From IMG/VR virus record IMGVR_UViG_3300022555_000012: DNA of 64,000 bases; one strand, given 5' to 3'. A program made the translations under genes and the position numbers. Shown piece by piece: positions 5,400-57,977 of this stretch. This DNA comes from an uncultured virus (IMG/VR IMGVR_UViG_3300022555_000012) (Duplodnaviria; Heunggongvirae; Uroviricota; Caudoviricetes). A model generated the notes under the pieces. The model worked only from the letters and a program-made list of their open reading frames with translations, was not told the origin of the DNA and searched no databases. The stretch's first letter is position 1, and each line of letters begins with the position of its first letter.

Positions 5400-8300
5400 A
5401 CCTATACATTGCCGGAATTCAGGTAGGATACGGAATATTTCTTCAAAATCGCCGTCCGATCCGAATTCATAGAAGAACAACAACCAGCCCCGAAAGCCGG
5501 AGCGATATGCCAGGACTTGTCCTCCCCAGCCAGTATCTCGTCATACTTCTGACACCCGTATCTGCCGTCCCCGATCGCTACCAGTTCAGCACACTGATGC
5601 TTGACCTCATCCCAGGCCCCATATCCACACGACCTTACTTTGCAACAATGTCCACATTGTAGACAGGGTCTTGCACCCTCATATAAAGGCAAAGGAGACA
5701 GAACCTGGGTCTTAACCTTCAATTCTGTCTCCCTTTTCATACCAATGATTTACCGACGATTAGACTGTCGGTGCGGGTTCAGGCTCACCCTTGATCCCCC
5801 GGAGATCCTTCTGGTAACGTGCCAGATACTCTTCTGTCTCCTTCAACCGAGCTTGCAAATCCTGCAATGAGATTACAGCCTCATTGTAATCCGAAAGGAT
5901 TTCCTGACCACGACGGGTCACTGGCTTCGCCATTGACTCCCCAATCGTCACCTTGGCAATGCGTTCCAGTTCTGCCACCATAACCTTCTTCGCCTGAATC
6001 TTTTCAGTCTTCCGAAGAACAGACTCCATTGCCTCCTGGATCTTAGACTCAAGGTCCTTGATCCTGACGGCCTTGTATTCTTCCGCCTTCAACTGTTCAC
6101 GTTGAATTGTAACCGCCTTGGCATATTCCTGTGCCGTGGCAATGTTCACCTTGATCTGCTCCGGGGTGTCCCCAGGCTTCGCCAACCCTGCCAGGATCAC
6201 CAACACAACGAGATCATTGTCCATCTCTTGCTGTTGTTCACCGAACATTTCTTGAAACGCAAACGGAAACCTAACCCGACTCATTATTATGTTTTTCTCA
6301 CACGATAACATAATTCCATCCCTCCTTGGATGATTACTACCTCTTACTATCACGACCCACACTCGCCCGAGTGTATCAAGCCGTAAAATCAGTTCTTGAC
6401 GAAATATACGTCCACACCATCTTTGTTGATGTATATTCCTCGTCGTTTCAACTCGTCCTCGATGGCTGACGCCCTGAAATCTTCCTGCTGATTCGTATCG
6501 GACATTACCACTTCACTGTGATATACCCGGTATTCTGCCTCCAGATCCTCAATGGACATATCCTTCGTAGCCTTCTGTGCCAGATCCGCACCACGCCAAT
6601 ACTTCAACCATTTTTGCCACCAACTCATAATGCCTCCTTCACCGGGACTGCCCGGTATATTGAACGATCCACTTCTGTATCCATAAGTCCCAACCGCACG
6701 GCCTCTTTCACATCCTTCACAAATTCGTCAATGGCCTTGTTCGCTGCTTCCTCAGAGTCAAACACAAGAGGTCTGTCCTCTTCAACTTTCCAGCCGGCGT
6801 CATCCCACCCATAAGAATACTTCGTCTCAACTTTCCACTTCATTTGTCTCTCCGGGAAATCTCGACCTGAACCGGCCGGCATTTCTTAAAATACTCCCTC
6901 TCAAACTCCTCAATCTTCTTCTGTCTGGCTTGATAACCACACGCACTCGTGAATCCCATACTATCTATCCACGACTTAGGAAATTTCTTCCCCATCATCC
7001 GTTTCAACTTGTTGATGACATCATACTCTCCACCTCTCCCAAATAACATCTGACATCGTTTCGATGTTTCACAATGTTTCTTCCTCCATGAACAAGTGCA
7101 AATCCCAGAAAGTACTACCGTGGCACCGTCAATGGTGATCTCCATATCACTCTTAATTGCCCATCCCTTTGCTTTCATAATTTGTTCCCATCCTGAATTA
7201 CCAAATCATCCACCATCTTATCGAAGTTCTCCCCTTTGAGATTCCTCGTGAAGAGTTCTGCAAAATACTGAGTATTCACCTTCCGTATCGCTTCATACCT
7301 CAAATACCCCAGGGCAAGTTCATCCACCGTCTTCCCTGATGAATTACCGTCTCCCTTAACCTCTCGAACCAAATCTTGAATCTCTTTCACATCATACTCC
7401 AACACGGACTATAAGTTTCATCCTTCTGATCCCGGCACTTTGATATGCCCTTGATCTTCAAGGCCTTCTCAATCTCCACTGGGTCTTCCAATTTTACAAA
7501 GATTCCACCATCTTCCATGGTATATGAGTATGAAACCTTACGACCCAGTAAACTCTTCAATTTGTCGCCTGCCCTGTGTGATTTTACCCTGATAACCGTC
7601 ATAATTACCTCATCCAAATCATGCCCATCCGATTCGCCAAAGCATCACTGATCTTGTGAAGTCTATCCCACCGAGCATCCAGACCATCCCGAATCCCTAT
7701 GTCCTTCTCAATCACAGCCTGATACTGAACCCGACCCATCTCCCGGTTGATCCGGGTAGAACGCCTTTTCATATTTCGAGTCATCCAATGCCACCTCTCT
7801 GTCTTGACTGCGTTCATATCCCAATGAATCCCCTCACCATACTTGCCGCTTCCGCCCCATACTTGCTCGTGATGTGTGTCGCCATCGAACAATCCACATC
7901 CTCGCCCAGTTCCCCGGCATTCGCCTTCCGGTAATCCTCATCCTGGGTCATCAGATAATCATCAAAGGCAATCTGATCAAACCCAGTGTAAATGTCCTTG
8001 TAGAACCGTTTCACATCAGCCTTGAAGATCTCCATGAATCGCTTGCGACAGAACATGATACGACGATGTTTAGCCGCCATCTGAGCCTTGAGCCCCTGTG
8101 CCTTGGCCGCCTGTTCCTGTAACCCCAACATCCATAATCTTCCGTGACTCATTGAAATCTCCCGTTACAACCTAATTGTTGTTTTTACCGACTTCTCTCA
8201 CAACATCCCTGTTGTTACTGATACATTGCTGAAAGTCTGTCAAAATACGGAATTATTTTCCCAGTTTCTTGCGTATGTTCTCGGCCTCGCATTGAATCCG

Positions 8301-19639: not shown

Positions 19640-20238
19640 TCACTTGGCAATCTCTTCCGTAATGTTCTTCATCACGTCTCTCGCACAATCGTCACAAACA
19701 TAAGCCGTTGCGGTAGGTCCTCCCGAAGTGATCATCCTTAATGCTCTGGTCCCGACCGGCATTGTGAACTTCGCCTTGTCCTCCTGGGTGTAAGGCTCCC
19801 GACGCTTTCGATTCTTATAGTCGAATTTCACCTGACAAAATCGACAAGCCACCTTAGACATTATTACCGTTCTTTCAAAGACCGGCACATAACTTCCTCG
19901 ACCATTATAGATTTTAATGCTCATAGTATTTTGGAACCCAATTCTTCTGCGATATTCTCCATCAACTCCCTCACACAATTATGACACACATAAGCCGTCC
20001 CCGTAGGTCCTGACGCTGTCACCATCCTGAAAGCCGTATCCCCTGAAGACATCATAAACTTCGCCTTATCTTCCGGGGTGTAATCTCGCCGCTCTTTCCG
20101 GGTTTTCACCTCGAAGGTTGACTGACAAAACCGGCAAGCCGTCTTCGACTTCAAAATGATCTTCGAGAAAACCGGACGGGTCCTTCCGTAGTTATCCTGT
20201 ATCTTGATACTCATTTCCAGATCTCCCTGTTCTTCCAA
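19640..20238 (-). CDS. two tandem paralogous Zn-finger proteins (both start MSIKI)
   Basis: Shared ACRFCQ...YT.EDKAKF...SGPT.TAYVC..C motifs. Confidence 0.7.
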
Positions 20239-20873: not shown

Positions 20874-21579
20874 TCATTGTCCCTTCACCGCCTTTTCATA
20901 AATCAATGCCACTTCCACATCATTGATCGGCATATACCGATTCACATCCACCCCGACATTCACATGCCAGATCCCAGCAACCTTCTTGGTCTTCCAAGCA
21001 TTGTGAACATGCCCACAAATCATGAAGTCAAACATATCCCGGCAGTATTGGGCGTGATAAAACTCCCGCTCCCGGTGACGATCCGACATCTTGTCTCTCC
21101 AGGGATTCGCCATTCTCTCGTTATGCGGGAGAGCCTGCCAAGCCCGATAAACCTCTTCATCTGCCAGAGGACGATGCTGAACACCAACCCGATACTTCCC
21201 AATCTCACAAGACATAAAGTAACCCACGCCTTTGACACCGTTCTGCTCATCGTGATTCCCGGCCACAATTATCCATTTACCTGTCAATTGTTTGAGAATC
21301 TCTTCGGGATGAGTCTTGGCCCCCATAAACCCTTTCTCCCCACCACGACAAGCGAAGTCTCCGACACAGACAACCGTATCCTCCGGTTTGACCCTCATAT
21401 TGGCTTCCCGAATCAACATCGTATTCATCTGTTCGGCACGAAGATGAGCAATCTCGTGACTGACCCATGACCCGTCTGGGTTCAAGTCCCCAGGTTTCAA
21501 CTGCGGCCGTTTCGTATATTTAATTATGTTGGGGTGGATGCTAATAGTGCGGGTCAGCGGTCCAGAATCTAACACTCAT
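20874..21579 (-). CDS. calcineurin-like metallophosphoesterase; N-terminus MSVRFWTADPHY is out of frame with the body (recoded or pseudogene)
   Basis: HPNIIKY, VGDF, GNHD and GHVH motifs in the body; the DxH motif is in a 12-codon ORF (21541-21579) with RBS GGAAGGAG. Confidence 0.75.
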
Positions 21580-21707
21580 GTTAAACTCCTTCCGACCATT
21601 GACCCGCACAAATCTCCCCCGCCGAAAAGCGGTTGATTGCGTTCTATTGTCATTTTCTTATTCATATTCATACATTGCATATCATATCTTCAAATACGGA
21701 AAGTTTT

Positions 21708-22436
21708 TCACACATTCTGCTTCTTATCCCGATACCGATGATAATTCCCTCCCCTTGCCGTCGGCTGCTGTGTATGACAATTGGGACACAACCATCTTAA
21801 ATTCACCACCCTGTTGTCTGTCTTATCACCATTGACATGATCAACTTCCAACTTCAATTTCTTTCCATTCCAGATTGGTCCCTGAGAACAAAGAACACAA
21901 TAATACTTCGATGGATCTAATTTATAAAAACGACTATTTACGGCAACTCTTCCCTTGTGTCCTTCCCGAAACAATTCTTCGTGTGTATAAGGTCGTCCTC
22001 TACCTTTTCTGAAATGAGAGATGTCTAATCCTAAACGATCTGCGGCTCTGGTCAATGCTGGTCTTTCTATTCCAATACTTCTTGCCGCCTTCAAATAAGT
22101 ATCATTGTCCTTTACAGCCCGAATCACATCTTCATCTGAGAAAAGTTTTTCTCCAGATTTTGAAAAACCACGATGAGTGCAAATTGCACAACTTTTAGAT
22201 CTGTAATCTTTTTCTCTACCACATTTGCAAAGTTGCGGAGCACAATGCTTTCCGTGTTTATATCTCGGATTTGATTCTCCTCTCCCCATAGTGAAATGAG
22301 ACGTGTTAAGTCCAAGTCTTTCCGATATCCTTGAAACAGTCTGACGACTAACCCAAACTCTTCTTTCCACCTCAGAAAAAGACCTGCATTCTGAGACTGC
22401 TTTAACAACTTCCTCGATTTGTTTTTGACTTAACAT
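21708..22436 (-). CDS. HNH homing endonuclease
   Basis: LEVDHVNGDKTDNRVVNLRWLCPNCHTQ. Confidence 0.9.
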   Translation of the reverse strand: MLSQKQIEEVVKAVSECRSFSEVERRVWVSRQTVSRISERLGLNTSHFTMGRGESNPRYKHGKHCAPQLCKCGREKDYRSKSCAICTHRGFSKSGEKLFSDEDVIRAVKDNDTYLKAARSIGIERPALTRAADRLGLDISHFRKGRGRPYTHEELFREGHKGRVAVNSRFYKLDPSKYYCVLCSQGPIWNGKKLKLEVDHVNGDKTDNRVVNLRWLCPNCHTQQPTARGGNYHRYRDKKQNV

Positions 22437-25216: not shown

Positions 25217-25876
25217 CTACTCAACAAGTTCTGTTCCCCAGTAGATTTTGCCGAGAAACGCTTCCCAGGTTCTTGGTGATTTACTCGTGACCTGCATCCT
25301 GACCCTTTCAAGAGGCGACACTCTCAAATCCTTAGCCGTTGGTTGGATAGGCTTCCGAATCAACTTCATCCCAACTTCTGAAGGCAGATGATTTGCCATC
25401 TTGTTGTTGCAAGAAATACAAGATAAGACAATATTTTCCCAAGTCATCTTTCCACCACGAGACTTTGGAATAATATGGCCCATATTCATCTCTTCTGTCT
25501 TTCCCTTGAATCCACAGAACTGACAAATCCCCTTATCCCTCAACCAGATGTTCCGACGACTAAAACTTGGCCTGTGATGAAGATTAATCTTTTGCCCAAA
25601 TCCACGATACTCAGTACAAACAATGACCTCTGGAATCAACAAATACCAATCATTTAAAGGAATAACCTGCGTTTCAGCGATCTTGGAGGTCCTAATTGCG
25701 TCATCCCAATTTACAATCCAACTATCAAAGTCGAAAGTGCAAAATGATGTCGGGTCCAAAAACAAGGCACGACCATTAAACACCTTCTTCACAGCATCAA
25801 ATACTGGAATGATGTTAATTGCCCTTCTCTCTGCATTCAAAACCAACGTCCTTGTTACTGTCATCGCCCTACTCAC
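25217..25876 (-). CDS. HNH endonuclease (McrA/HNH_5-like)
   Basis: FSRRNIWLRD..CQFCG...HIIPKSRGG..TWENIVLSC..CN. Confidence 0.85.
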   Translation of the reverse strand: MSRAMTVTRTLVLNAERRAINIIPVFDAVKKVFNGRALFLDPTSFCTFDFDSWIVNWDDAIRTSKIAETQVIPLNDWYLLIPEVIVCTEYRGFGQKINLHHRPSFSRRNIWLRDKGICQFCGFKGKTEEMNMGHIIPKSRGGKMTWENIVLSCISCNNKMANHLPSEVGMKLIRKPIQPTAKDLRVSPLERVRMQVTSKSPRTWEAFLGKIYWGTELVE

Positions 25877-27228: not shown

Positions 27229-28110
27229 TCATATTTTTACTCCAAAATACCCGCACAAAAATTGCACGGACTCTTCAACTGTCTTATTTTGCGTATCAAC
27301 TGCCAACGCTGACTCACCTGCGGGAATATCATACGGTGCATCTACCCCGGTGAAGTTCTTAATCTTCCCCGCCCGTGCCTTCGCATACATCCCCTTCACA
27401 TCCCTCTTCTCACAAACATTAAGATAGCTCTCAGCATAGACGATCTTCACATTCTTCACGATCCCGCGAACAATGTCCCTCAGTTCCTTCGTCGGAGATA
27501 CAAAACTTGCCAAAACCACAGTCTTGTTACGATTGAACATCTCACAAGTCCAGGCCGCCCGTCTAAGATTCTCTTCCCTGCCACCGTCCACGAACCCGAG
27601 TCCCTGACATAGCCCCGTCCGAAGGTCATCCCCGTCCACCAGGACGACATTGTAACCCGCAGCCATTAACTTGACCCGGAACTCCTTTGCCAAGGTCGTC
27701 TTGCCCGAACATGGTAGCCCAGTGAACCACACCGTTGTCTCCAGCAACTTCAGATACTGTTCCACATCAGGATGCAGATTACCAGCCCCTTGCCCATTCC
27801 TCACCTTTGTCGCAGAGATCTCCTGCACATCCTTGGGAACCTCCATGTAGTTGATATCGTATCCAACTCCACGCCCCACATTGATACTCTCGATATCTGG
27901 GAACAACATCACCTCGACCTTGTCTCCGTATACCCGGTTAATCATCTCACGTCTCTGATCGTAGGTATATGGGTCACTGTCCGAAATCGGAGTGTCCCTA
28001 CAACCGATAATCACCCTCTTGCCGGCATTAACCGCCTGGTCAATGATACATTTGTGACCGTTATGGAACGGCTGAAATCTGCCGACAAACAATGCTGCTC
28101 TTTGTTTCAT
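27229..28110 (-). CDS. cysC: nucleotidyltransferase (HIGH-type) fused to adenylylsulfate kinase
   Basis: GRFQPFHNGH; WFTGLPCSGKTT; DGDDLR; RDVKGMYAKARAGKIKNFTGVDAPY. Confidence 0.88.
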   Translation of the reverse strand: MKQRAALFVGRFQPFHNGHKCIIDQAVNAGKRVIIGCRDTPISDSDPYTYDQRREMINRVYGDKVEVMLFPDIESINVGRGVGYDINYMEVPKDVQEISATKVRNGQGAGNLHPDVEQYLKLLETTVWFTGLPCSGKTTLAKEFRVKLMAAGYNVVLVDGDDLRTGLCQGLGFVDGGREENLRRAAWTCEMFNRNKTVVLASFVSPTKELRDIVRGIVKNVKIVYAESYLNVCEKRDVKGMYAKARAGKIKNFTGVDAPYDIPAGESALAVDTQNKTVEESVQFLCGYFGVKI

Positions 28111-28333: not shown

Positions 28334-28972
28334 TCACTTTAAAAGTTCAAAATTCCCTCTATATTTTTCAACATCAGTTCTCTCTGCATCTCCTATTGGG
28401 TCTCTCAATATCCATATTCTAAGACTGTTCCGCCCGTCAGCCACACTGTGAGGAAGAACATAAACACTGTCATTATCAGCACAATATCCTAAAAAGAAGT
28501 CAACCTCCTCTTTACTGTAAGAATGCCTAACAGCCTTCTTATTTGCTCCTCCCTTTCTGACTGAACAAAATAAGAACTCGTGACATCCACGAGCAACCGG
28601 ATAAATATACTTACATTGACACTTTACAACACTTCCATCTTTTTTCAGAACCAACAAGTCTATCGGAGTGTCCTCCGTCATTGGTTTGAAAACCTTAACT
28701 CCTCCGAACATCAACCTCGCACAAATCATCTGCCTTGCCGCTTCACCGATATCGGTCTTTGACAATCCAGGTCTCTCTTTTGCCACTATCTGTTCTACAA
28801 CCCGACGACCTGGAGCCGAACGCAACACCTTCGACGAATCACACCCTTTAATAATATTCGCCATCGTTGACTTTGATCGTCCATACTTTTTGAGTAACTG
28901 TCCAAGTGTCAGTCCTCTCATTTCTCGATCTTCGACTATCTGCATCCTCACATCTTCTGATATTCTGTTCAT
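28334..28972 (-). CDS. HTH + PD-(D/E)XK homing-type endonuclease
   Basis: GE.....PIDLLV...KCQCK and Y....VDFF motifs; N-terminal HTH. Confidence 0.8.
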   Translation of the reverse strand: MNRISEDVRMQIVEDREMRGLTLGQLLKKYGRSKSTMANIIKGCDSSKVLRSAPGRRVVEQIVAKERPGLSKTDIGEAARQMICARLMFGGVKVFKPMTEDTPIDLLVLKKDGSVVKCQCKYIYPVARGCHEFLFCSVRKGGANKKAVRHSYSKEEVDFFLGYCADNDSVYVLPHSVADGRNSLRIWILRDPIGDAERTDVEKYRGNFELLK

Positions 28973-31625: not shown

Positions 31626-31988
31626 TTATTTGCCGATGTTTTTAGAAATTTCTGCCCGAATCATGGCCACAACAGCCGGAAGATTCACAAAGACCTCTGA
31701 AGCCGTGAACCGGATCGTCTTAATCCCGTGAGAAGCGAAGACAGCATCCCTGTTCTTATCCGACTCCACCATTGCCTTCTGAAGATGATATTTGCCATCC
31801 GTCTCGATGATAAGTTTGGCCTTTGGACACCAGAAATCAGCGATATACCCATACATCGCCTTCTGACTGTGGATTGCTACCCCGAGTTGATTGTTCTTGA
31901 TCTTTGCCCAGAGTTTCTTCTCAGGCCAAGACTTGTGCCTGGACATATAAGCCGCCCGACGAACTATCCATGGCTTTTTCACCCTCAT
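31626..31988 (-). CDS. DUF559 / Vsr-like endonuclease
   Basis: EKKLW...YIADFWCP..KLIIETDG.YH....D..RD. Confidence 0.85.
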   Translation of the reverse strand: MRVKKPWIVRRAAYMSRHKSWPEKKLWAKIKNNQLGVAIHSQKAMYGYIADFWCPKAKLIIETDGKYHLQKAMVESDKNRDAVFASHGIKTIRFTASEVFVNLPAVVAMIRAEISKNIGK

Positions 31989-34136: not shown

Positions 34137-34219
34137 TGGAGCCGAGTGAGGGACTCGAACCCCCGCGTCTTTCGAGGCAGCTTACGATGCTGCTGCTGTC
34201 GCCACTGAGCCAACCCGGC
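34137..34219 (-). tRNA. tRNA-Thr(CGT) with extended variable arm
   Basis: GCAGC-ATCGTAA-GCTGC; variable region CTCGAAAGAC; CCA. Confidence 0.85.
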
Positions 34220-41479: not shown

Positions 41480-41555
41480 TGGTGGAGAAGACCGGGATCG
41501 AACCGGCCACCCTCACAATGCCATTGTGATGCTCTACCAGATGAGCTACTTCCCC
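41480..41555 (-). tRNA. tRNA-Ala(GGC)
   Basis: TCACA-ATGGCAT-TGTGA; G3.U70 pair; CCA. Confidence 0.92.
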
Positions 41556-41896
41556 AAAACCTTATCACCCTTCTTCTGATTACACGGATAACACGCGATC
41601 ACAATGTTCTTCGGGTCCAACTCCGGTCCACCCCTTGACTTCGGGATCACATGATCCAATGTCGCCAACTTCCTCATCTGTGCCTTCGTTGCATCATCGG
41701 GAACCTCTGGAACCAGCCCTGTCGCCTTACAGTAGTAACAAACCAAGTCACCTACCTCTGCCATCGCCTTATTCAGATGAGCCTCCCTGAAGGCTACCCA
41801 GGTCGCTCTCTCTTGTTCCTGGAGTTTCCTCACCAACAATACCCTGGCCGCCATTGAATGAGGATGTGGGTCCTCTACCCTTACTCTGTGTCTCAT
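41546..41896 (-). CDS. small HNH endonuclease
   Basis: CYYC...ATLDHVIPKSRGG....NIVIACYPCNQKKG. Confidence 0.85.
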   Translation of the reverse strand: MRHRVRVEDPHPHSMAARVLLVRKLQEQERATWVAFREAHLNKAMAEVGDLVCYYCKATGLVPEVPDDATKAQMRKLATLDHVIPKSRGGPELDPKNIVIACYPCNQKKGDKVLGK

Positions 41897-43654: not shown

Positions 43655-43741
43655 TGGCGTTCCCGAGAGGATTTGAACCTCTATTTGCTTTCGCCCTTCA
43701 GATTCGTAGTCTGACATGCTATCCAATTACACCACGGGAAC
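43655..43741 (-). tRNA. tRNA-Arg(ACG) with extended variable arm
   Basis: TCAGA-CTACGAA-TCTGA; variable region AGGGCGAAAGCAAAT; CCA. Confidence 0.87.
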
Positions 43742-43743
43742 AT

Positions 43744-43799
43744 AACCTGCAACCTTCTGATTCGTAGTCAGAAACTCTATCCAATTGAGCTACGGGTAC
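43744..43799 (-). pseudogene. truncated tRNA-Arg(ACG), broken in the T-loop
   Basis: GTACCCG...TCTGA-CTACGAA-TCAGA-AGGTT-GCAGG-TT, then 2 nt and the intact copy. Confidence 0.85.
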
Positions 43800-43933
43800 A
43801 TTATACGCTTTTGGTGAGATTTAATTCTCACATTGAGAGGGATATCGAAAACTCTGGGGATGGGTCCCGATGCCTTGATAGTGCCCTTCTCTTCCGAACT
43901 TCACTCGGCGGTTTATTTTTCCTACAAAAGCTT

Positions 43934-48080: not shown

Positions 48081-48156
48081 CAAATTGACGAAATGAATCG
48101 TCTCACATTTATACATTGCAGGAGTTCACCCGCAATACGGAAAAGATTTTGACAAT

Positions 48157-48188
48157 AAAAAACCCCAAGGCTTTTTGGCCCCAGGGTC
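48157..48188 (-). terminator. intrinsic terminator
   Basis: ACCCTGGGGC-CAAAAA-GCCTTGGGGT followed by a T-run on the minus strand. Confidence 0.7.
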
Positions 48189-48376
48189 TTGCTCTCATTC
48201 TCTTTTCCGTCCGCTTAATGCACACAAGAAAAGAACAAGAACCCTGTAGTTGCCGGGCGATCTTCTGTCGTCCAGGCCCCTGTAGGCTTCTGCTCTTTAA
48301 TGGTATGCATAATTACGCTCATGTGAATACTATACGCCGCTTCCTTAATCCGTTGCAACAAAATCTTTAATTATTT

Positions 48377-48943
48377 TTAAACCGATTCAGACTCATCTCG
48401 AATCTCATCCTGAAGTGCCTTAATTTCCTCATCCACTATCTGATCCGTCTCCTGTATCGTGGCCTCTCTCTGTTCCGTGTTCAAAAGGCTTGCCGCGTGT
48501 CTTGCAATCAATCTGTTCGCAACCCTGTTCGATACTGCCCTGGCTGTCTCAATCGCATATCCTCCACACTCTTTCCGTGAATCAGCAATCACCCGACGAA
48601 TCTGTTTCCGAAATTGAGATTCCCTCATCATCTCCGTCAAAGCCGCCTGACTTTTAAGGTCATCATTCTCCTGCTTGATACGAATCCATTCCATCGCCAT
48701 TCCGAAGAACATTGTCCCCAGACCACTGAAAAGACAGATGATGACTGATATCCAAATAGGAACTTTTGATGAAGCAATACCCGCCAGGACAGAGATGCCA
48801 ACTGAAAATAAAAATATACCACCGACAACCTGTAAACGAACTTGTCTCAGTTTTTCTTCGGCGAGCTTCTTAAGATCCCGATCGCTTTCGCTTTGATCTG
48901 TTCCGCCACCCTGATCGCTTGCAACGGGTCTATTCCTATCCAT
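48377..48943 (-). CDS. two-TM membrane protein (start uncertain)
   Basis: Two hydrophobic helices followed by a helical tail. Confidence 0.6.
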   Translation of the reverse strand: MDRNRPVASDQGGGTDQSESDRDLKKLAEEKLRQVRLQVVGGIFLFSVGISVLAGIASSKVPIWISVIICLFSGLGTMFFGMAMEWIRIKQENDDLKSQAALTEMMRESQFRKQIRRVIADSRKECGGYAIETARAVSNRVANRLIARHAASLLNTEQREATIQETDQIVDEEIKALQDEIRDESESV

Positions 48944-51640: not shown

Positions 51641-52468
51641 CTAAAACTCTTTGACGACTTTAACCGCCGCCTCAATCTCTTCCGCCCATTTCCGATCCGC
51701 CAGATACATATCCCTGGGATCGTCCATCTGCCATCCAGGTTCTCGAAGAAACTGAATCCGGGTATATCTCTTAACCGGGAGAGACTTGACGAAATAGTCA
51801 TGCATATTGTCTGATGCTCCATGCAACATCGCCTCAAGCACCCAGATTGCCGTCCCGACTCTCGTCCCCGGTGTCCCGCCCTCGTCCCCTGACTCTGTCC
51901 CGGTCCCAATCGAAAGTATCTCCACATCCTCAATCTTGGCCCCAAGAACCCTCACAGCCGCCGCAAGAGCCACCATACTCGGATTATTGGCATAGATTCC
52001 CCCATCAGCGTATCCCTTCCAAGGTGGGAAATAAGTCTCCGCTGCCGTTGCACAACGACAAATCTCCCAGGCCGGCCATGACCTATCATCAAAATTCGTC
52101 GATGAAAACACCTTCAATGTCTTCTGGCCAATATCGGCCGCCGTAATAAAGACAGGCTTCTTTGCATCCCCCAGCGTTGTTGGCCCAAAAACTGCCCTCA
52201 GAGCATCATTCAGTCCCGTGTCCGAATATTCCGACTGAAGAAGATTCATCTTCCGATACCAGGGTGCATCAAAAACCTTTCCCATCCACTTGTCAAAGAA
52301 ATCAGGAGAAATAATCTCGGGAGTCCCTAATGCCGCCGCTAAAACTTGCGGAGATCCAATCGATGTCCCTGCAAAGGCATCGAACTTGTCAAAACAGTTC
52401 GCCTCCGTCATTATGGAAGACTGTATCCGACCAAATACTCCACCACCATCAAGTGCCAATATTTTCAT
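51641..52468 (-). CDS. patatin-like phospholipase
   Basis: ILALDGGG, GTSIG and ADGGIYANNP motifs. Confidence 0.9.
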   Translation of the reverse strand: MKILALDGGGVFGRIQSSIMTEANCFDKFDAFAGTSIGSPQVLAAALGTPEIISPDFFDKWMGKVFDAPWYRKMNLLQSEYSDTGLNDALRAVFGPTTLGDAKKPVFITAADIGQKTLKVFSSTNFDDRSWPAWEICRCATAAETYFPPWKGYADGGIYANNPSMVALAAAVRVLGAKIEDVEILSIGTGTESGDEGGTPGTRVGTAIWVLEAMLHGASDNMHDYFVKSLPVKRYTRIQFLREPGWQMDDPRDMYLADRKWAEEIEAAVKVVKEF

Positions 52469-53552
52469 TATCTGTCCTCCAGGCTGCATCAATTTGATCC
52501 GCCGATACCCCAAAACACTGTTCAGCCAACTGAGCAGCAATCTGGGCCATCATTACCGGAGGAACACTCATACCTACACAATATACCCTTTTGTTCCTGG
52601 TGACATCAAGAAAATCATAATCATATGGATATGAACCGATTAGACAAATTTCAACCCAACTCAAATTCCTCATCTCTTCCGGGTGTTTCATGTTCTCCGT
52701 CGCCAAGACTGTCGGACTAACCCGCTCATTACTCAACCGGCACCAACTGAAATAACTGCCACCTGAGACTGTCGAATAAGCATCCCCCGGCCGACACCTG
52801 TGCCAATACGCCCGATCCACCGTATTCGCTGTTGTTCCCACCAAATCCTGTATCGGCAACTTGGCTGTAACATCCCTAAACGGGATTGCCGGCTCATTGA
52901 AACTTAAATGAATCGCCGGCAACTTCAAATCTTTTCTCCTGGCTATAAAGAAGACTCTCTCCCGGACCTGTGGAACTCCCATCGACGCCGCATTCAAAAG
53001 AAACAACTGAGGCTCATATCCAAGCGAAACAAACCGATCCATCACTAATTTACAGTAACCCTTCGCCTTCCCAGTCAGCATTCCTTGGACATTCTCTGCC
53101 ACCGCTATCTTCGGCCTTAACTCTCCAACCAAATCAAGATACTCAAAGAACAAGTCAGAAAGAACCTGCTCTGACTGCCCTTCCCTGAACTTCTTATTCT
53201 TTCCCCAGGCTTTCTCACGATCCCCGACCATCGAAAATGTCGAACAAGGCGGACTGCCGTCAAGCACATCCAAGTTATACAACTCCTTGGGTATGTCCTT
53301 CCTGGTCTTAAATGTCTGAATCGGTTCAAGGAAAGCGTGTTTTGGATGATGATTGGCTTGATAGAATGTCATCATCTCCTTATCAATTTCGTTGCATCCC
53401 AACATATCAAAGCCTGCCATCTTGTATCCGAAGGATGATCCTCCTCCACACGCAAAGGTAGAAAAGACAGTATGACCGTGTTTCTTTACTCTCTCCAGGT
53501 CAGTTCTTTTCCAGCAATACGGGAATCTGTGATCTTGAATCATTTTATCCAT
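52449..53552 (-). CDS. DNA (cytosine-5) methyltransferase, paralog 3
   Basis: FACGGG, GSPPC, ENV, Q.RERVFF and GMSVPP motifs. Confidence 0.92.
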   Translation of the reverse strand: MDKMIQDHRFPYCWKRTDLERVKKHGHTVFSTFACGGGSSFGYKMAGFDMLGCNEIDKEMMTFYQANHHPKHAFLEPIQTFKTRKDIPKELYNLDVLDGSPPCSTFSMVGDREKAWGKNKKFREGQSEQVLSDLFFEYLDLVGELRPKIAVAENVQGMLTGKAKGYCKLVMDRFVSLGYEPQLFLLNAASMGVPQVRERVFFIARRKDLKLPAIHLSFNEPAIPFRDVTAKLPIQDLVGTTANTVDRAYWHRCRPGDAYSTVSGGSYFSWCRLSNERVSPTVLATENMKHPEEMRNLSWVEICLIGSYPYDYDFLDVTRNKRVYCVGMSVPPVMMAQIAAQLAEQCFGVSADQIDAAWRTDNENIGT

Positions 53553-54619
53553 GCCTCATCTATCTGTGCTTTTGGCACTCCAAACCATTGTTCGGCAATC
53601 TGAGCCGCAATCTGGGCTGTCATCACCGGAGGAACACTCATGCCGATGCAATATAGCTTAGAATTACGATTCTTACCAAGGAAATCATAGTCGTAAGGAT
53701 ATGCACCGCACATACATGCCTCAACCCAACTAATCCCCCTCATCTCAGTTGGATGAGTATGCTGAGTGCTACTCGTCAATGTGAAGGCCGGCTTGTCTGC
53801 ACTTAATCTCTTGTAATTGAAGAAGTTTCCTCCCGAAGCCTCCTCAAAAGACTGTCCCTGTCTTGTTCTATGCCAGAATGCCCGAACAAATCCTCCCACT
53901 TCTGTCCCTTCCAGATCCTGAATAGGCAAATTATCACATACCTCTCCAAATGAAATCGGTTTTTCGGCGAAGTTGAATTTCAAACTCTTCCACTTCAGAT
54001 CCTTCCTTCGGGCAATGAAGAAAACCCTCTCCCTCGCCTGGGGAACCCCAAGGGATGCCGCATTCATCAAGAACAACTGAACATCATACCCAATATCATC
54101 ATATTTTTGCCGGATTAGGTCACAATATCCCCTTGCCTTTCCGATCAACATTCCCTTCACATTTTCAGCAACAGACACCTTCGGCCTTAACTTGTTCACC
54201 AAATCCAAATAGTCAAAGAACAAGTCTGATAGAACCTGCTCAGCCTGTCCTTCACGGAACTTCTTTTCCTTGCCCCAGGCTTCCTCTCGTGAGCCCGCCA
54301 TAGAGAAAGTAGAGCAGGGAGGACTACCATCAAGCACATCCAGATTAAACAGATCCTGGGGTAAATCAGCCCTATTCTTGAAGGTCTGAATAGGCTCGTG
54401 GTAAATGTGTTTGGGATGATGGTTCGCCAAATACAGTTCAACCATCTCCTTATCTATTTCATTGAATCCTATGACATCGAAGCCTGCCATCTTGTAACCG
54501 AAAGATGATCCTCCTCCACACGCAAAAGTTGAAAAGACGTTGTGACCATGCTTATGAACCCGGTCTAAATCTGTTTTCTTCCAACAGTAAGGAAATCTGT
54601 GATCTTGACTCATTGCCAT
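53540..54619 (-). CDS. DNA (cytosine-5) methyltransferase, paralog 2
   Basis: Same C5-MTase motifs. Confidence 0.92.
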   Translation of the reverse strand: MAMSQDHRFPYCWKKTDLDRVHKHGHNVFSTFACGGGSSFGYKMAGFDVIGFNEIDKEMVELYLANHHPKHIYHEPIQTFKNRADLPQDLFNLDVLDGSPPCSTFSMAGSREEAWGKEKKFREGQAEQVLSDLFFDYLDLVNKLRPKVSVAENVKGMLIGKARGYCDLIRQKYDDIGYDVQLFLMNAASLGVPQARERVFFIARRKDLKWKSLKFNFAEKPISFGEVCDNLPIQDLEGTEVGGFVRAFWHRTRQGQSFEEASGGNFFNYKRLSADKPAFTLTSSTQHTHPTEMRGISWVEACMCGAYPYDYDFLGKNRNSKLYCIGMSVPPVMTAQIAAQIAEQWFGVPKAQIDEAWIK

Positions 54620-55680
54620 GCCTCGTCTATCTGTTCTTTGGGAACCTTAAACCATTGTTCAGCTATTTGTGCTGCCAAATTCGCCGTCATCACCGGGGGA
54701 ACACTCATACCGATACAATACACCTTCTTTTTAGGAGAATGCTCCAGAAAATCATAATCATGAGGATATGATCCAATCATACACACTTCCACCCAACTAA
54801 TCTTTCTCTTCTCTGTCGGATGCGTTAATCCCCAGTTCGTCGTAAGTGTCAATGCCGGCTCATTTGCCGACAATCTCTTATTCCCGAATCCCATGCCTCC
54901 AGATACATCCGAATATGATCCACCCTGTCTCGTCTTCGACCAGAAAACATTCATCAACATCCCGCCCTCTGTCCCGGCAAGATCCTGAAATGGCAGATTA
55001 TCCATCACCGTCTGAAAAGTTATCTGCTTCTCATTACAGTCAATCTTTATATTCGTCCATCCTAAATCTTTTCTCCTGGCTATAAAGAAGACCCTCTCTC
55101 TCCTTTGTGGAACTCCCATTGTTGCCCCATTCACCAGAAACAACTGAACATCATATCCAATCTCGTTATACTTCCTCCGAATGAGGTCACAATAACCCTT
55201 CGCCTTTCCAACCAGAAGCCCTTTAACATTCTCTGCAACAGATACTTTCGGCTTCAACTTGTTCACCAAATCCAAATAGTCAAAGAACAAGTCTGATAGA
55301 ACCTGCTCGGCCTGTCCTTCACGGAACTTCTTATTCTTTCCCCATCCTGATTCGCGTTTTCCAGATGTTGAGAATGTCGAACACGGTGGACTGCCGTCAA
55401 GCACATCCAAATTATACAACTCCTTGGGCAAATCGGGTCTATTCTTGAATGTCTGAATCGCCTCATGATAGGTGTAAATCGGATTGTGGTTTGCCAAGTA
55501 TAACCCCACCATCTCCTTATCTATCTCGTTAAACCCTATGACATTGAAGCCTGACATCTTATAGCCGAAGGATGATCCTCCACCACAAGCAAAAGTTGAA
55601 AAGACAGTATGACCGTGTTTCTTTACCCGAACCAAGTCTGTCTTCTTCCAGCAATAGGGGAATCTGTGATCTTTAACCAC
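54610..55680 (-). CDS. DNA (cytosine-5) methyltransferase, paralog 1
   Basis: Same C5-MTase motifs. Confidence 0.92.
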   Translation of the reverse strand: MVKDHRFPYCWKKTDLVRVKKHGHTVFSTFACGGGSSFGYKMSGFNVIGFNEIDKEMVGLYLANHNPIYTYHEAIQTFKNRPDLPKELYNLDVLDGSPPCSTFSTSGKRESGWGKNKKFREGQAEQVLSDLFFDYLDLVNKLKPKVSVAENVKGLLVGKAKGYCDLIRRKYNEIGYDVQLFLVNGATMGVPQRRERVFFIARRKDLGWTNIKIDCNEKQITFQTVMDNLPFQDLAGTEGGMLMNVFWSKTRQGGSYSDVSGGMGFGNKRLSANEPALTLTTNWGLTHPTEKRKISWVEVCMIGSYPHDYDFLEHSPKKKVYCIGMSVPPVMTANLAAQIAEQWFKVPKEQIDEAWQ

Positions 55681-56266
55681 CCAACCTCTCCAAATCTACC
55701 TGATCGTTTTCGTCAGATGACCAGACAAACCCGCAACACGGGCACTTGGCATCACAATCTTTCACCAAATCAGCGATATCAATCTCCTTGTTGGTGAAAT
55801 TCTTATCCTCTCCTGGGACAAATCTCTTTTCGAGTTTGCTCGTTAAATCATCCATCCTCAATTTACCAAATAAGTCTGCATCAGCCCCCTGAACGGCATG
55901 CAACAACTCCAGAACAGATGGGGTAAAATCACCCTCAATCTCGGGATTATTCAAAGTGAGATTTGCCGACATCTCCTCATTCTCTGGAATATGAGCCACA
56001 ACCATCGGTGCTTCCGTCAATCCCTGGCTAATCAATACCTTGAATCTCTGGTGCCCCCCGACAATGTGTCCCGTTACCTCATTCCAGACAATCGGCTCGA
56101 CATACCCGAATCGATCCAAAGAGGCTTTAAGTCCTCTCATTGCCACATCATCAATGATCCTGGGATTTTCCGGCATCGGAGTCACAGCACCAAACTTAAT
56201 CACTCGAACTTCTATTTCACCGAGATTAGACATTGGATGCTCCATTCCTTTGTACGATTTCCCCAT
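55673..56266 (-). CDS. ParB/Srx N-terminal domain protein with C-terminal CPxC
   Basis: NPR.I...L..S..RFG.VEPIVWN...IVGGHQR. Confidence 0.85.
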   Translation of the reverse strand: MGKSYKGMEHPMSNLGEIEVRVIKFGAVTPMPENPRIIDDVAMRGLKASLDRFGYVEPIVWNEVTGHIVGGHQRFKVLISQGLTEAPMVVAHIPENEEMSANLTLNNPEIEGDFTPSVLELLHAVQGADADLFGKLRMDDLTSKLEKRFVPGEDKNFTNKEIDIADLVKDCDAKCPCCGFVWSSDENDQVDLERLGG

Positions 56267-56786
56267 TCGCCTTCTTCCACACGCTTCGGCATCTTGGACA
56301 TCTCATTCCCTCTTTGGTGCCTTCTGTTCCACCCTTACCCTTGCCACTACCCTTCTTCCCCTCTCCTTCTCCTGGCTGATCAAACTTATACCGTCCAAGA
56401 TAGTTCAACATATCAGCCAGACCGACCGTCTTGAAATCATCGGCCATCGTCTTCTCGGATTCTTGAAGTAACCCAACAACACTCTTCGTGAATGTTCCCC
56501 TGGTAGCCGGATTGTTCATCGTAATATTCAAGGCAACTTCTTCGTTGTCATCCAAATCAACGACTACGACATCTGTCTCCTCGACACCCTTGCTCTGAAG
56601 CACCTTAAACCGCTGGTGTCCCCCTACAATGTTTCCTGAACGCTTGTTCCAAATAATCGGAACCAGAACACCGTAACGATCAATTGAACCACCTAACCCA
56701 TCAATGGCCTCCTGCCGAATTTCCCTTGGGTTATATGCCGCCGGATGTAACTCCGATAATTTCTTCCGTTCCATTATCCAATTCAT
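56226..56786 (-). CDS. ParB/Srx N-terminal domain protein
   Basis: YNPR...PIIWNKRSGNIVGGHQR; CPRC. Confidence 0.85.
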   Translation of the reverse strand: MNWIMERKKLSELHPAAYNPREIRQEAIDGLGGSIDRYGVLVPIIWNKRSGNIVGGHQRFKVLQSKGVEETDVVVVDLDDNEEVALNITMNNPATRGTFTKSVVGLLQESEKTMADDFKTVGLADMLNYLGRYKFDQPGEGEGKKGSGKGKGGTEGTKEGMRCPRCRSVWKKANGEIVQRNGASNV

Positions 56787-57325
56787 GTTTTCCCCTTTAC
56801 GACCAAAATATCTTTACCATCCACCATCCACTTGTTACCGCAACAAGGACATTCCGTATCCCAGTCATCACTCTTCTTTTCACCCTCCATTACCCCGTCT
56901 CCACGATTCTGTTCAATGTTCTTTTCAAGGGATGCCTTCAGCTCATCCATTCGAACGGCCTGGAACAGATCCGGGGCAGAACCCTCGACCTGACTGATCA
57001 ACTCCATGATCGGCTCATCGAACTCTCCCTCGATCTTGACATTGTTCATCGTCAAACTCGCCGCCAACTCATCCTCGGGCGATAAATTGACAACAACCAT
57101 TGGAACTTCCGTTACCCCCTGTTGCATCAATATGGCATATCTCTGATGACCACTGACAATATGCTTCGTCTTCTCGTTCCAAACGATCAACTCCACCAGA
57201 CCGAAACGACCAATAGACGCCTTCAGACCTTTTAAGGCCGACGGAGATATAATCCGGGGATTATTGCTCTGAGGGATTGCGTCACTCAATTTTACAACCC
57301 GTGTTTCCCATTTATTTATGAGCAT
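56783..57325 (-). CDS. ParB/Srx N-terminal domain protein
   Basis: NNPR...IVWN...IVSGHQR; CPCC. Confidence 0.85.
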   Translation of the reverse strand: MLINKWETRVVKLSDAIPQSNNPRIISPSALKGLKASIGRFGLVELIVWNEKTKHIVSGHQRYAILMQQGVTEVPMVVVNLSPEDELAASLTMNNVKIEGEFDEPIMELISQVEGSAPDLFQAVRMDELKASLEKNIEQNRGDGVMEGEKKSDDWDTECPCCGNKWMVDGKDILVVKGKT

Positions 57326-57977
57326 TTTTCTTCCCCTTTAATTGTTTCCCTGTTCCAACCACTGCATTAAAAACGACCTCATTGTCTGTCACCTTCCATT
57401 GACTACTGCACTTGGGGCAACAAATCACCGCCTGGGTCTTCTCTGTGACCTCTGGCGGGTCTTCTTCCCCAGATCCTGCTCCTGGCACGGGTCCCTGTTG
57501 TCCTCCCTCGCCTGGCTCGACCGGGGCCTTCCCCGTAGTCTTTGGCTCTCGCTTCTTCTTGTCGAACCCTCGACCCTTCAGGTAATCATAAAGGTCCAGT
57601 AGTCCGATTTCCCGGAATTTACTCCCGAGTTGGGCTTCAGACATCCGAAGCTGTTCCACAACGTCCTTCGTGAAGTCACCTCGAACTTCCCGATTATTCA
57701 TTGTGATATTCAAGGCAACCTCTTCGTTGTCATCCAGATCAACAACGACGACATCTGTTTCGATCTCCCCCATCTCCAGGAGTTGCTTATATCTCTGATG
57801 CCCACCAACAATGTTTCCTGAACGCTTATTCCAAACGATATGAGACAACATTCCAAATTTGGCAATGGAATTCCCTAAACCCTCAAATGCCTGGTCAGAC
57901 ATCTTCCTGGGATTGTATTCAGCAGGGGTCAACTCATCCAACTTCATCTTCCTGACTTCTACTTTTACTTCACTCAT
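57312..57977 (-). CDS. ParB/Srx N-terminal domain protein
   Basis: YNPR...IVWNKRSGNIVGGHQR; CPKC. Confidence 0.85.
   Translation of the reverse strand: MSEVKVEVRKMKLDELTPAEYNPRKMSDQAFEGLGNSIAKFGMLSHIVWNKRSGNIVGGHQRYKQLLEMGEIETDVVVVDLDDNEEVALNITMNNREVRGDFTKDVVEQLRMSEAQLGSKFREIGLLDLYDYLKGRGFDKKKREPKTTGKAPVEPGEGGQQGPVPGAGSGEEDPPEVTEKTQAVICCPKCSSQWKVTDNEVVFNAVVGTGKQLKGKKNAHK

Follow-up and report, generated by a model that had tools for sequence, protein, structure and literature searches.

A stop-led frame break in a phage metallophosphoesterase gene as a candidate site of short ribosomal bypass

A 64,000-nucleotide (nt) stretch of DNA from an uncultured virus of the Caudoviricetes (IMG/VR record IMGVR_UViG_3300022555_000012; hereafter the window, whose positions are used throughout) carries a gene for a calcineurin-like metallophosphoesterase that is broken after its twelfth codon by a stop codon and a change of reading frame. 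We propose, with a probability of roughly 0.4, that this break is a maintained recoding site within a conserved expression cassette, which ribosomes would cross to make one full-length enzyme. That the locus is an expression device, rather than a gene in decay, is suggested by the strict co-occurrence of the break with a distinctive leader, by the stop codon that heads the insert in each of two diverged lineages, by the position of both inserts, which fall exactly at the junction of codons 12 and 13, and by the retention of a Shine–Dalgarno sequence, an ATG start, an ATGA stop/start overlap and an intact enzyme body.

The break separates the first catalytic motif from the rest of the enzyme

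The gene, like all those in the phosphoesterase part of the window, is read on the minus strand. Its N-terminal part is an open reading frame (ORF) of 12 codons (MSVRFWTADPHY followed by TAG; 21541..21579), which starts at ATG 21579-21577, stops at TAG 21543-21541 and codes for strand β-1 and the metal-binding D-x-H motif of the enzyme. The metallophosphoesterase body (20874..21542) lies in the +1 frame and runs from AGC at 21542, with the His-x-Asn-Ile of the family from 21536, to the stop TGA at 20876-20874. Between the two stands TAGCATC (21537..21543), 7 nt where all intact homologs in a 31-row alignment have a single codon of 3 nt, an excess of 4 nt. An earlier note on this DNA, made from the sequence alone, had described a 4-nt frame break after D-x-H with intact catalytic motifs downstream, and on both counts the sequence agrees: the body keeps GD, GNHD and GHVH, together with all 22 invariant columns of the family. 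The removal of AGCA suggested there does restore the family spacing, giving Y-F-H, but is not necessarily the right placement; the excess can also be read as TAGC (21543-21540), which leaves ATC for Ile and gives Y-I-H, as in the intact loci L054 and L055 (TAT ATC CAC).

The body matches the Pfam families PF12850 (E 1e-08) and PF00149 (E 1.7e-05), both above cut-off, and a protein search with P0001, the +1 read-through of the break built with TATT coded as Y, found 59 relatives. All intact rows of the alignment begin M-x-R-[FW]-W-T-[AS]-D-x-H-x-x-H-x-N-I, and since they share this D-x-H-containing start the 12 codons are the true N-terminus of the enzyme; D74, N108-H109-D110, H135 and H190/H192 are invariant across the 31 rows. 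An AlphaFold (AF2) model of P0001 folds as a normal family member (predicted local distance difference test, pLDDT, 83) with a strand at residues 4-8, its least confident N-terminal block being residues 11-20 (pLDDT 68). The closest solved relative, Aquifex aeolicus aq_1665 (PDB 1XM7; hmmsearch E 5.7e-09; Foldseek E 4.5e-09, template-modelling scores 0.51/0.62), shares the fold, an N-terminal D-x-H-x-x-H-x-N-I-I motif, and GD, GNHD and GHVH-type motifs, but is 22% identical and comes from one uninterrupted frame. In the window, the family motifs GD, GNH[DE], H and GHxH stand in one chain with the family fold, whereas motif I (D-P-H) is out of frame with them, in the 12-codon ORF that ends at TAG; unless the break is crossed, the enzyme falls outside the metallophosphoesterase family.

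In databases the gene is called (P0002) from GTG 21575 to TGA 20876-20874, an open frame of 233 amino acids (aa) that holds the calcineurin-like phosphoesterase body. We rejected translation of the body from this GTG, as the product would lack D-x-H and, in the diverged relative L058 described below, the GTG is GCG and the body frame is closed upstream. No Shine–Dalgarno sequence lies ahead of the body; the ordinary coupled start of the next gene has GAAGGGA-ATGA. A possible restart codon in the body frame, AUU (21545-21543), overlaps the stop.

The break is present in the DNA, and TAG is an ordinary stop

The 4 nt are present in the DNA and the break is not an assembly error, a possibility that the earlier note had raised, because contigs from three studies and one from the Joint Genome Institute (JGI) carry the same bases. 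The JGI contig (L049, 18.7 kb) is identical to the window at 6,665 of 6,666 positions, break included. Logan contigs of runs X2, X3 and X5 (three studies; 2017 and 2020), several of which may include the source sample, span the break with 0 differences and 0 gaps, and, being contigs rather than reads, could hide minor variants that lack the 4 nt. The stretch is listed in 11 runs, none of them of RNA. The ORF in the frame of the body (frame B) is recorded on 25 + 5 + 1 = 31 contigs, the longest of 342 kb, and the 4-nt insert is non-repetitive. An assembly or sequencing error thus has a negligible probability.

The window belongs to a giant lake phage, with 27 tRNA genes, a ribonucleotide reductase, methylases and several HNH genes. 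TAG terminates 13 of its 99 minus-strand ORFs, and no suppressor was found among the 27 tRNA genes; TAG is an ordinary stop in this phage. A reading in which TAG is sense and a +1 shift occurs at CCA_CCC_C was rejected on these two grounds, and it fails in L058 as well.

A second lineage carries a break of different length at the same place

Among the related loci (77 from a JGI metagenome scan and 48 from IMG/VR), L058, a 5,078-nt contig, has a body that is 64% identical to that of the window in aa and 62% in nt. The proportions of nonsynonymous and synonymous differences between the two bodies are 0.26 (pN) and 0.83 (pS), with synonymous sites saturated, and pN/pS equals that of intact pairs. 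The first 12 codons, by comparison, match at 35 of 36 nt; degenerate third positions are identical at 9 of 10 sites in the 12 codons versus 54 of 128 in the body (P = 0.0026). The break in L058 reads TGA and then AT before AAT CAT CCC (N-H-P), 8 nt where 3 are expected, and this 5-nt excess leaves the body in the other alternative frame, so that a +2/-1 change is needed. Removal of TGAAT yields Y-N-H, the family consensus.

In both lineages the stop directly follows UAU and the insert falls exactly between codons 12 and 13; by simple arithmetic, both inserts would open with an in-frame stop by chance with a probability of about (3/64)^2. Since excesses of 4 and 5 nt call for two different frames, a single simple frameshift is ruled out and a frame-agnostic mechanism is needed, either a short bypass or termination–reinitiation. 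The body frame of L058 is closed by a TGA four codons upstream of the break, so that it can be entered only a few bases from the stop, either at UUG or immediately ahead of it.

A third lineage is represented by P0005, which is known as a protein from ENA; its body is 73% identical and its N-terminus is of the frame-B type of the window, from which its junction and leader are deduced. A search limited to the frame-B N-terminus returned only the P0002 and P0005 clusters (90% identity) among 5.8 billion proteins. All three broken lineages have full-length open bodies with every invariant residue, and no decayed body was found behind the cassette. A search of the phage GenBank collection and exact-pattern searches of IMG/VR gave no match, and in GTDB genomes only one intein-bearing and one distant relative were found. 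Database ORFs with short N-termini (P0019, P0027, P0032, P0034, P0040, P0041 and P0046) were considered as further broken forms and rejected as artefacts of gene calling or contig ends where the DNA (L059/L060, L065) or a longer cluster member (P0063, P0067) is known, a verdict that does not extend to P0019, P0041 and P0046/P0068.

An overlapping upstream ORF and a long hairpin are confined to the broken loci

Between the stop of the adjoining HNH gene and the leader lies a conserved motif pair, TTCCGTATT ... GCAATGTAT (21670..21702, minus strand), which is probably a phage promoter unlike those of sigma-70. The motif [TC]AATGTA stands upstream of the gene in the window, in L049, in L058 and in 9 of 21 intact loci, the intact set being drawn from loci whose 5′ end is complete and whose identity reaches 42% (17 distinct 5′ regions). 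On its coding strand the window has 13 copies of TTCC..TATT; no sigma-70 consensus was found on the minus strand and no terminator at the site. A motif pair of TTCC-TATT... and then GGTAATGTA is also seen upstream of the gene in the diverged relatives L054-L056, L058, L062, L063, L065, L067 and L068.

The distance from the motif to the ATG of the enzyme is 91 and 97 nt in the two broken loci versus 21-58 nt in the 9 motif-bearing intact ones, some 70 extra bases. Where intact loci have the enzyme's own ATG, the window has, 17 nt past the promoter-like motif, the ATG of a small upstream ORF of 25 codons (MTIERNQPLFGGGDLCGSMVGRSLT; 21576..21653, minus strand, stop TGA 21578-21576), whose stop overlaps the enzyme start as ATGA in both the window and L058, and which carries the Shine–Dalgarno sequence GGAAGGAG (21593-21586) for the 12-codon ORF. 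Its counterpart in L058, a contig that ends 162 nt upstream of the 12-codon ORF, has 24 codons and differs in whole-codon indels and, within the conserved block F-G-G...L-C-G-S-M-V, in changes at third positions; the Shine–Dalgarno sequence is retained despite change (AGGAG in the window, GGGGG in L058). This leader is missing from all 21 intact loci.

The leader and the 12 codons together form a long imperfect RNA hairpin of about 63 nt (21547..21609, minus strand), with its 5′ arm at 21609-21581 inside the upstream ORF, its apical loop at about 21578-21575 and its 3′ arm, which is made of enzyme codons 2-11, at 21574-21547. The stems are GUGCGGGUCA/UGACCCGCAC, UGGUC/GACCG and an apical stem of 10 base pairs; the stem contains the Shine–Dalgarno sequence and the AUG sits at the apical loop, while the 3′ foot reaches the His-11 codon, leaving a single codon (3 nt) ahead of the stop. 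The earlier note had seen this pairing as one of about 16 nt between a 5′ untranslated region and the coding sequence; the pairing is real and stronger than claimed, but the supposed untranslated region is the conserved, ATGA-coupled ORF. The weaker pairing that the note drew past the break, bulging out AGCA, is present in the window fold (GAU/AUC and GGGG/CCCC) but missing in L058, and so is not conserved.

The minimum free energy (MFE) of a 161-nt fold in the window is -49.4 kcal/mol (z -3.9; none of 200 shuffled sequences folded as stably) and that of a 163-nt fold in L058 is -48.1 kcal/mol (z -3.2). Of about 6,390 overlapping 100-nt sense-strand segments of the 64 kb, that with the hairpin is the most stable (-47.0; mean -22.3, standard deviation 5.5), and over the region -75..+40 the MFE is -47.0, -47.0 and -45.3 kcal/mol in three broken loci (two distinct) versus -14.1 to -29.8 in the 21 intact loci. 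The consensus fold of the two sequences has 15 identical pairs and 4 that are kept via one-sided changes; the apical stems form in both but differ in register and sequence. No Rfam family matched at the hairpin. The second most stable sense-strand fold (-46.5 kcal/mol per 100 nt), also with no Rfam match, lies at 48111-48310, where paired long hairpins lie in a region with few genes, flanked by a tRNA-Lys gene and the gene at 48377-48943.

The two cassettes have diverged in the 5′ half of the upstream ORF and in the Shine–Dalgarno/apical region, whereas the hairpin arms and the synonymous sites of the 12 codons have not. Such divergence in the less constrained parts, with conserved arms, fits an old cassette under selection for structure better than a very recent transfer. 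The recent pseudogene that the earlier note had allowed for, confined to one lineage, is contradicted by the recurrence of the stop-led break and the same hairpin in a relative with a 64% identical body, and by bodies that evolve like intact genes. The L058 counterpart, the upstream ORF in place of an untranslated region, the rank of the hairpin within the 64 kb and the confinement of the leader to broken loci are additions to what that note had described.

A proposed route across the break

The mechanism we tentatively favour is a miniature bypass in which ribosomes would cross a stop-led coding gap of 4 or 5 nt, helped by the hairpin re-forming behind them. Ribosomes would load on the 25-codon upstream ORF, whose translation would melt the 5′ arm of the hairpin that buries the Shine–Dalgarno sequence and AUG of the enzyme, and would terminate on the UGA of the AUGA overlap before restarting on the enzyme's AUG. 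After 12 codons, with tRNA-Tyr on UAU in the P site and a stop in the A site (UAG in the window, UGA in L058), the ribosome would pause. By then the apical hairpin would have re-formed behind it, and the lower stems, zipping as the mRNA exits, would bias it forward. A slide over the stop and 1 nt (4 nt in the window) or the stop and 2 nt (5 nt in L058) would follow, with decoding resumed at AUC or AAU and a product that has the exact D-x-H-x-x-H spacing of the family.

A single chain made by bypass is favoured over two pieces because a free 12-mer that carries β-1 and two metal ligands is unlikely to function, because the body lacks a Shine–Dalgarno sequence and has in the window only an AUU as restart codon, and because skipping the stop and one or two further nt restores both the invariant loop length and the residues of intact relatives (Y-I-H, Y-N-H). 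The geometry also fits: the upstream ORF must open a hairpin that blocks initiation, and the foot of that hairpin abuts the presumed pause site. More tentatively still, the cassette might be portable, in that the upstream ORF would prime ribosomes through a start-hiding hairpin whose re-zipping would push them over 4 or 5 nt with no matched landing codon, so that a catalytic loop could carry a frame-breaking insert, possibly as a shield against an endonuclease, at no cost to the protein.

Several observations weigh against this proposal. There is no matched pair of take-off and landing codons that preserves the conserved residues, as tRNA-Tyr on AGC or AAU would make at best two of three pairs, and the only matched pair, His CAC to CAC/CAU, deletes three residues; no sequence element sets the end of the slide at 4 or 5 nt; and a signal of the gene-60 type from within the exit tunnel is impossible because the nascent chain has only 12 residues. 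In the consensus register of the window and L058 hairpins there is no double compensatory change. The cassette is known at the DNA level from two examples, one of them (L058) a single contig. Identity between the window and P0005 falls from 5′ to 3′ (55/60, 47/60, 35/60), and a tree of the bodies (34 rows, from which truncated and very distant proteins were omitted, with an unresolved backbone) sets L058 beside the intact P0018 (96/94), so that broken forms occur in two places. The gradient and the tree position together make a recent gene conversion of the cassette possible, in which case the purifying selection on the body would mostly predate the break. Finally, HNH homologs also adjoin intact genes, which weakens the idea that the insert confers immunity to an endonuclease.

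Alternative explanations

The most serious rival, although in our view an unlikely one, is that the 12-residue peptide is freed at the stop and the same ribosome restarts at an overlapping start-like codon (AUU-AG in the window, U-UG-A in L058), the two pieces then assembling non-covalently; the hairpin, re-forming behind the ribosome, would block backward scanning and independent loading and so keep synthesis at 1:1. Such termination–reinitiation is frame-agnostic, as the 4-nt and 5-nt excesses demand; of the start-like codons that the geometry permits, the best one overlaps the stop in both lineages; the upstream closure of the L058 body frame, with entry at or just before UUG, suits it; and one stop/start overlap (ATGA) is already in use in the cassette. 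Coupling of this kind is widespread (PMC6728339), and genes split by endonucleases can still function with halves that share a metal site (10.1101/2022.08.31.505936). Against it, AUU is a very poor start, and where the junction of the upstream ORF with the 12-codon ORF has both ATGA and a Shine–Dalgarno sequence, that of the 12-codon ORF with the body has AUU or UUG and no Shine–Dalgarno sequence; a free 12-residue peptide that contains a core strand (model residues 4-8) would have to survive and find a body made seconds later; and the need for so strong a hairpin would be unexplained. We know of no 12-residue split of this sort in the phosphoesterase family. Slightly less likely again is a dead or silenced gene, in which leader, 12 codons and break would make up a cassette, selfish or hitch-hiking, by which the gene's 5′ end is overwritten time and again, perhaps with the HNH gene and by gene conversion, the bodies being intact only since the invasions are recent and the hairpin serving the cassette (as an mRNA end, in regulation of the HNH gene or in target protection) rather than the enzyme. 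The two places of the broken forms in the body tree, the 5′-to-3′ identity gradient and the restriction of the window-type N-terminus to two 90%-identity clusters of 5.8 billion proteins all agree with such a history, as do an adjacent HNH gene with presence/absence polymorphism, the status of the phosphoesterase gene as a mobile-element hotspot (L075/L126 with an intein at GNHD, L046 with an insert of roughly 1 kb) and the finding that MobA insertions are mostly recent though the element is old (10.1101/2022.08.31.505936). It is opposed by the open, full-length bodies with their invariant residues in 3 of 3 lineages, by inserts that are both stop-first and exactly between codons 12 and 13, by the persistence of the genotype across years and studies, and by the Shine–Dalgarno sequence, ATG, ATGA and coding sense of the 12 codons, which a dead gene would not need and which are kept in otherwise diverged cassettes.

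A plain programmed +1 frameshift at UAU_UAG_C, a shifty stop at which the A site would read AGC, is improbable; it would give D-P-H-Y-S-I-H, with one extra residue, and leave L058 as a separate or defective case. A stop would stand in the A site and a weak wobble codon (UAU, not UAC) in the P site, the read-through P0001 folds as a normal family member (pLDDT 83), and shifty-stop +1 sites are well known (PMC5009743). However, re-pairing of tRNA-Tyr from UAU to AUU would make one of three pairs, the extra residue would lengthen a loop that has the same length in every intact row of the alignment (block 11-20, pLDDT 68), and the +1 frame of L058 meets UAA after one codon, so that +2/-1 is needed there even though the whole cassette is kept. 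The Shine–Dalgarno sequence that prfB has 3 nt upstream of its frameshift site is missing here. Removal of the 4 nt from the RNA, by guided excision and ligation or by editing with the hairpin as a splint, is very improbable: the weak pairing past the break, which leaves UAUUAGC unpaired, is found in the window only, no Rfam family matched, and no RNA ligase or splicing enzyme was found among the 71 window ORFs scanned. We know of no guided excision/ligation system of such a kind in phages. Of the routes that the earlier note had offered, then, some form of recoding remains the best reading; a plain +1 frameshift is not a general answer because of the 5-nt excess in L058, and guided excision is unsupported because the pairing beyond the break is not conserved. 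Two other candidates were rejected: a Tyr-to-Tyr hop to the UAU of I-I-K-Y deletes eight residues, including the nearly invariant H15, N17 and I18, and the earlier UAU in L058 is out of frame; transcriptional slippage or terminator-like skipping would have neither a repeat run nor a terminator to act on.

Comparison with known recoding systems

The site would work most like the 50-nt bypass of T4 gene 60, part of an HNH cassette with MobA, and like the 10-nt inserts of phage phiHau3. In the T4 cassette too, an untranslated insert within a conserved enzyme motif splits a metal site, a conserved stop opens the gap, directly after the last decoded codon (here UAU-UAG in the window and UAU-UGA in L058), an HNH endonuclease gene lies immediately upstream, and the cassette is conserved while host genes diverge (10.1101/2022.08.31.505936). 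Pairing in the exiting mRNA has been argued to be the forward driver for gene 60, and a 5′ structure able to form on exiting mRNA is found here as well, with its apical loop about 29-32 nt 5′ of UAU compared with 26 nt in T4 (10.1101/2024.12.09.627546). The differences are considerable. The gap is 4-5 nt rather than 50, the site is at codon 12, the hairpin encloses the gene's own ribosome-binding site and apparently needs the upstream ORF to open it, and HNH homologs here also flank intact genes. No UAY stands at a landing position that keeps H15 and N17, so take-off and landing are unmatched. The absence of matched codons, of a 3′ take-off stem-loop (there is no conserved 3′ structure), of a Shine–Dalgarno sequence in the gap and of a long nascent-peptide signal sets the site apart from the gene 60 type.

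The terminase gene of phiHau3, a Streptomyces phage, has two 10-nt inserts that are candidates for bypass; like the present breaks, they are short frame-breaking blocks that start with a slow codon, their flanks are contiguous in insert-free relatives, a 5′ stem-loop is the proposed stimulator, and the distance is shorter than in T4 (PMC10732093). There, by contrast, the slow codon is the rare UUA, with a regulatory logic of host tRNA, and not a stop, the insert is longer, an internal Shine–Dalgarno sequence is proposed, and no upstream ORF or hairpin enclosing a ribosome-binding site is described in the part of the report drawn on here (PMC10732093). Shifty-stop +1 sites share with the break a stop in the A site as the pause and the need for recoding to obtain a functional product (PMC5009743). 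They differ in that here there is no re-pairing codon and no close upstream Shine–Dalgarno sequence, L058 needs another frame, and the family spacing is restored only by skipping 4 or 5 nt, not 1 or 2. Shifty stops include CUU_UGA_C in prfB and UCC_UGA_U in antizyme. The ATGA that joins the upstream ORF to the 12-codon ORF is a textbook form of termination–reinitiation coupling (PMC6728339), and a start-like codon also overlaps the stop at the break; genes in pieces such as T4 39/60 and Aeh1 nrdA show that enzymes split beside homing endonucleases can work (10.1101/2022.08.31.505936). One piece here, however, would have only 12 residues, the restart codons AUU and UUG lack a Shine–Dalgarno sequence and no endonuclease gene lies between the pieces.

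The neighbouring endonuclease and other features of the window

The gene directly upstream (21708..22436, minus strand) codes for an HNH endonuclease of 242 aa with an N-terminal helix-turn-helix-like region and a C-terminal HNH_3 domain (Pfam E 1.2e-06), and is probably a free-standing homing endonuclease. Homologs of about 50-54% identity lie upstream of intact phosphoesterase genes in L056 (1-447), L062 (2420-2932) and L063 (922-1434), and none was matched in L053, L054 or L003; such presence and absence among close relatives is typical of a mobile homing endonuclease. In run X7, which belongs to a fourth study, a 293-nt piece of the HNH gene occurs with no differences. One may speculate, by analogy with T4 MobA, that the insert shields the target of the endonuclease.

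Other insertions were seen in relatives of the phosphoesterase. In L075 (1735-3432) and in L126, a contig binned in a Paludibacteraceae metagenome-assembled genome, the relative is a 565-aa ORF with an intein-like insert of about 330 residues directly after the catalytic G-N-H-D, the first residue of which is Cys and after which the extein resumes as C-N-N-G-V-K. A distant relative in L046 (1418-2908) was matched as two same-frame pieces (residues 5-78 and 77-225) about 1 kb apart, where an intein, an intron or an endonuclease insert is possible.

Elsewhere in the window, the 27 tRNA genes (ARAGORN) lie on the minus strand at 26774-47516 amid genes for HNH (25217-25876, 41546-41896), PD-(D/E)XK (28334-28972) and DUF559/Vsr-like (31626-31988) endonucleases; two predictions of tRNA-Arg(ACG) overlap (43655-43741 and 43727-43800), and one of tRNA-Thr(CGT) has 83 nt (34137-34219). 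Inside this region, at 27229-28110, a cytidylyltransferase-like domain is fused to an adenylylsulfate (APS) kinase (E 1.4e-46). At 52449-55680 stand three C5 cytosine DNA methylase genes in tandem, and after them four genes with ParB_N domains, likewise in tandem (55673-57977). Two adjacent paralogous small ORFs at 19640-20238, of 112 and 105 aa and about 55% identical, have C-x-x-C pairs in each and overlap by 58 nt.

Significance

Efficient natural bypass is known from very few cases, namely T4 gene 60, the inserts of yeast mitochondria and the phiHau3 candidate. If the proposal is correct, a gap of 4-5 nt, its conserved 5′ hairpin and the coupled upstream ORF would together make up the smallest bypass cassette in nature, and, lacking codon matching, it would offer a direct test of pairing in the exiting mRNA as a forward drive. 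Should the enzyme turn out to be made as two pieces, the split would be an extreme one for a protein, with two metal ligands on a piece of 12 residues. In both cases, gene calling gives a wrong annotation, a 233-aa protein that lacks the first catalytic motif, and breaks of this type in the enzymes of phages should not be written off as pseudogenes or errors.

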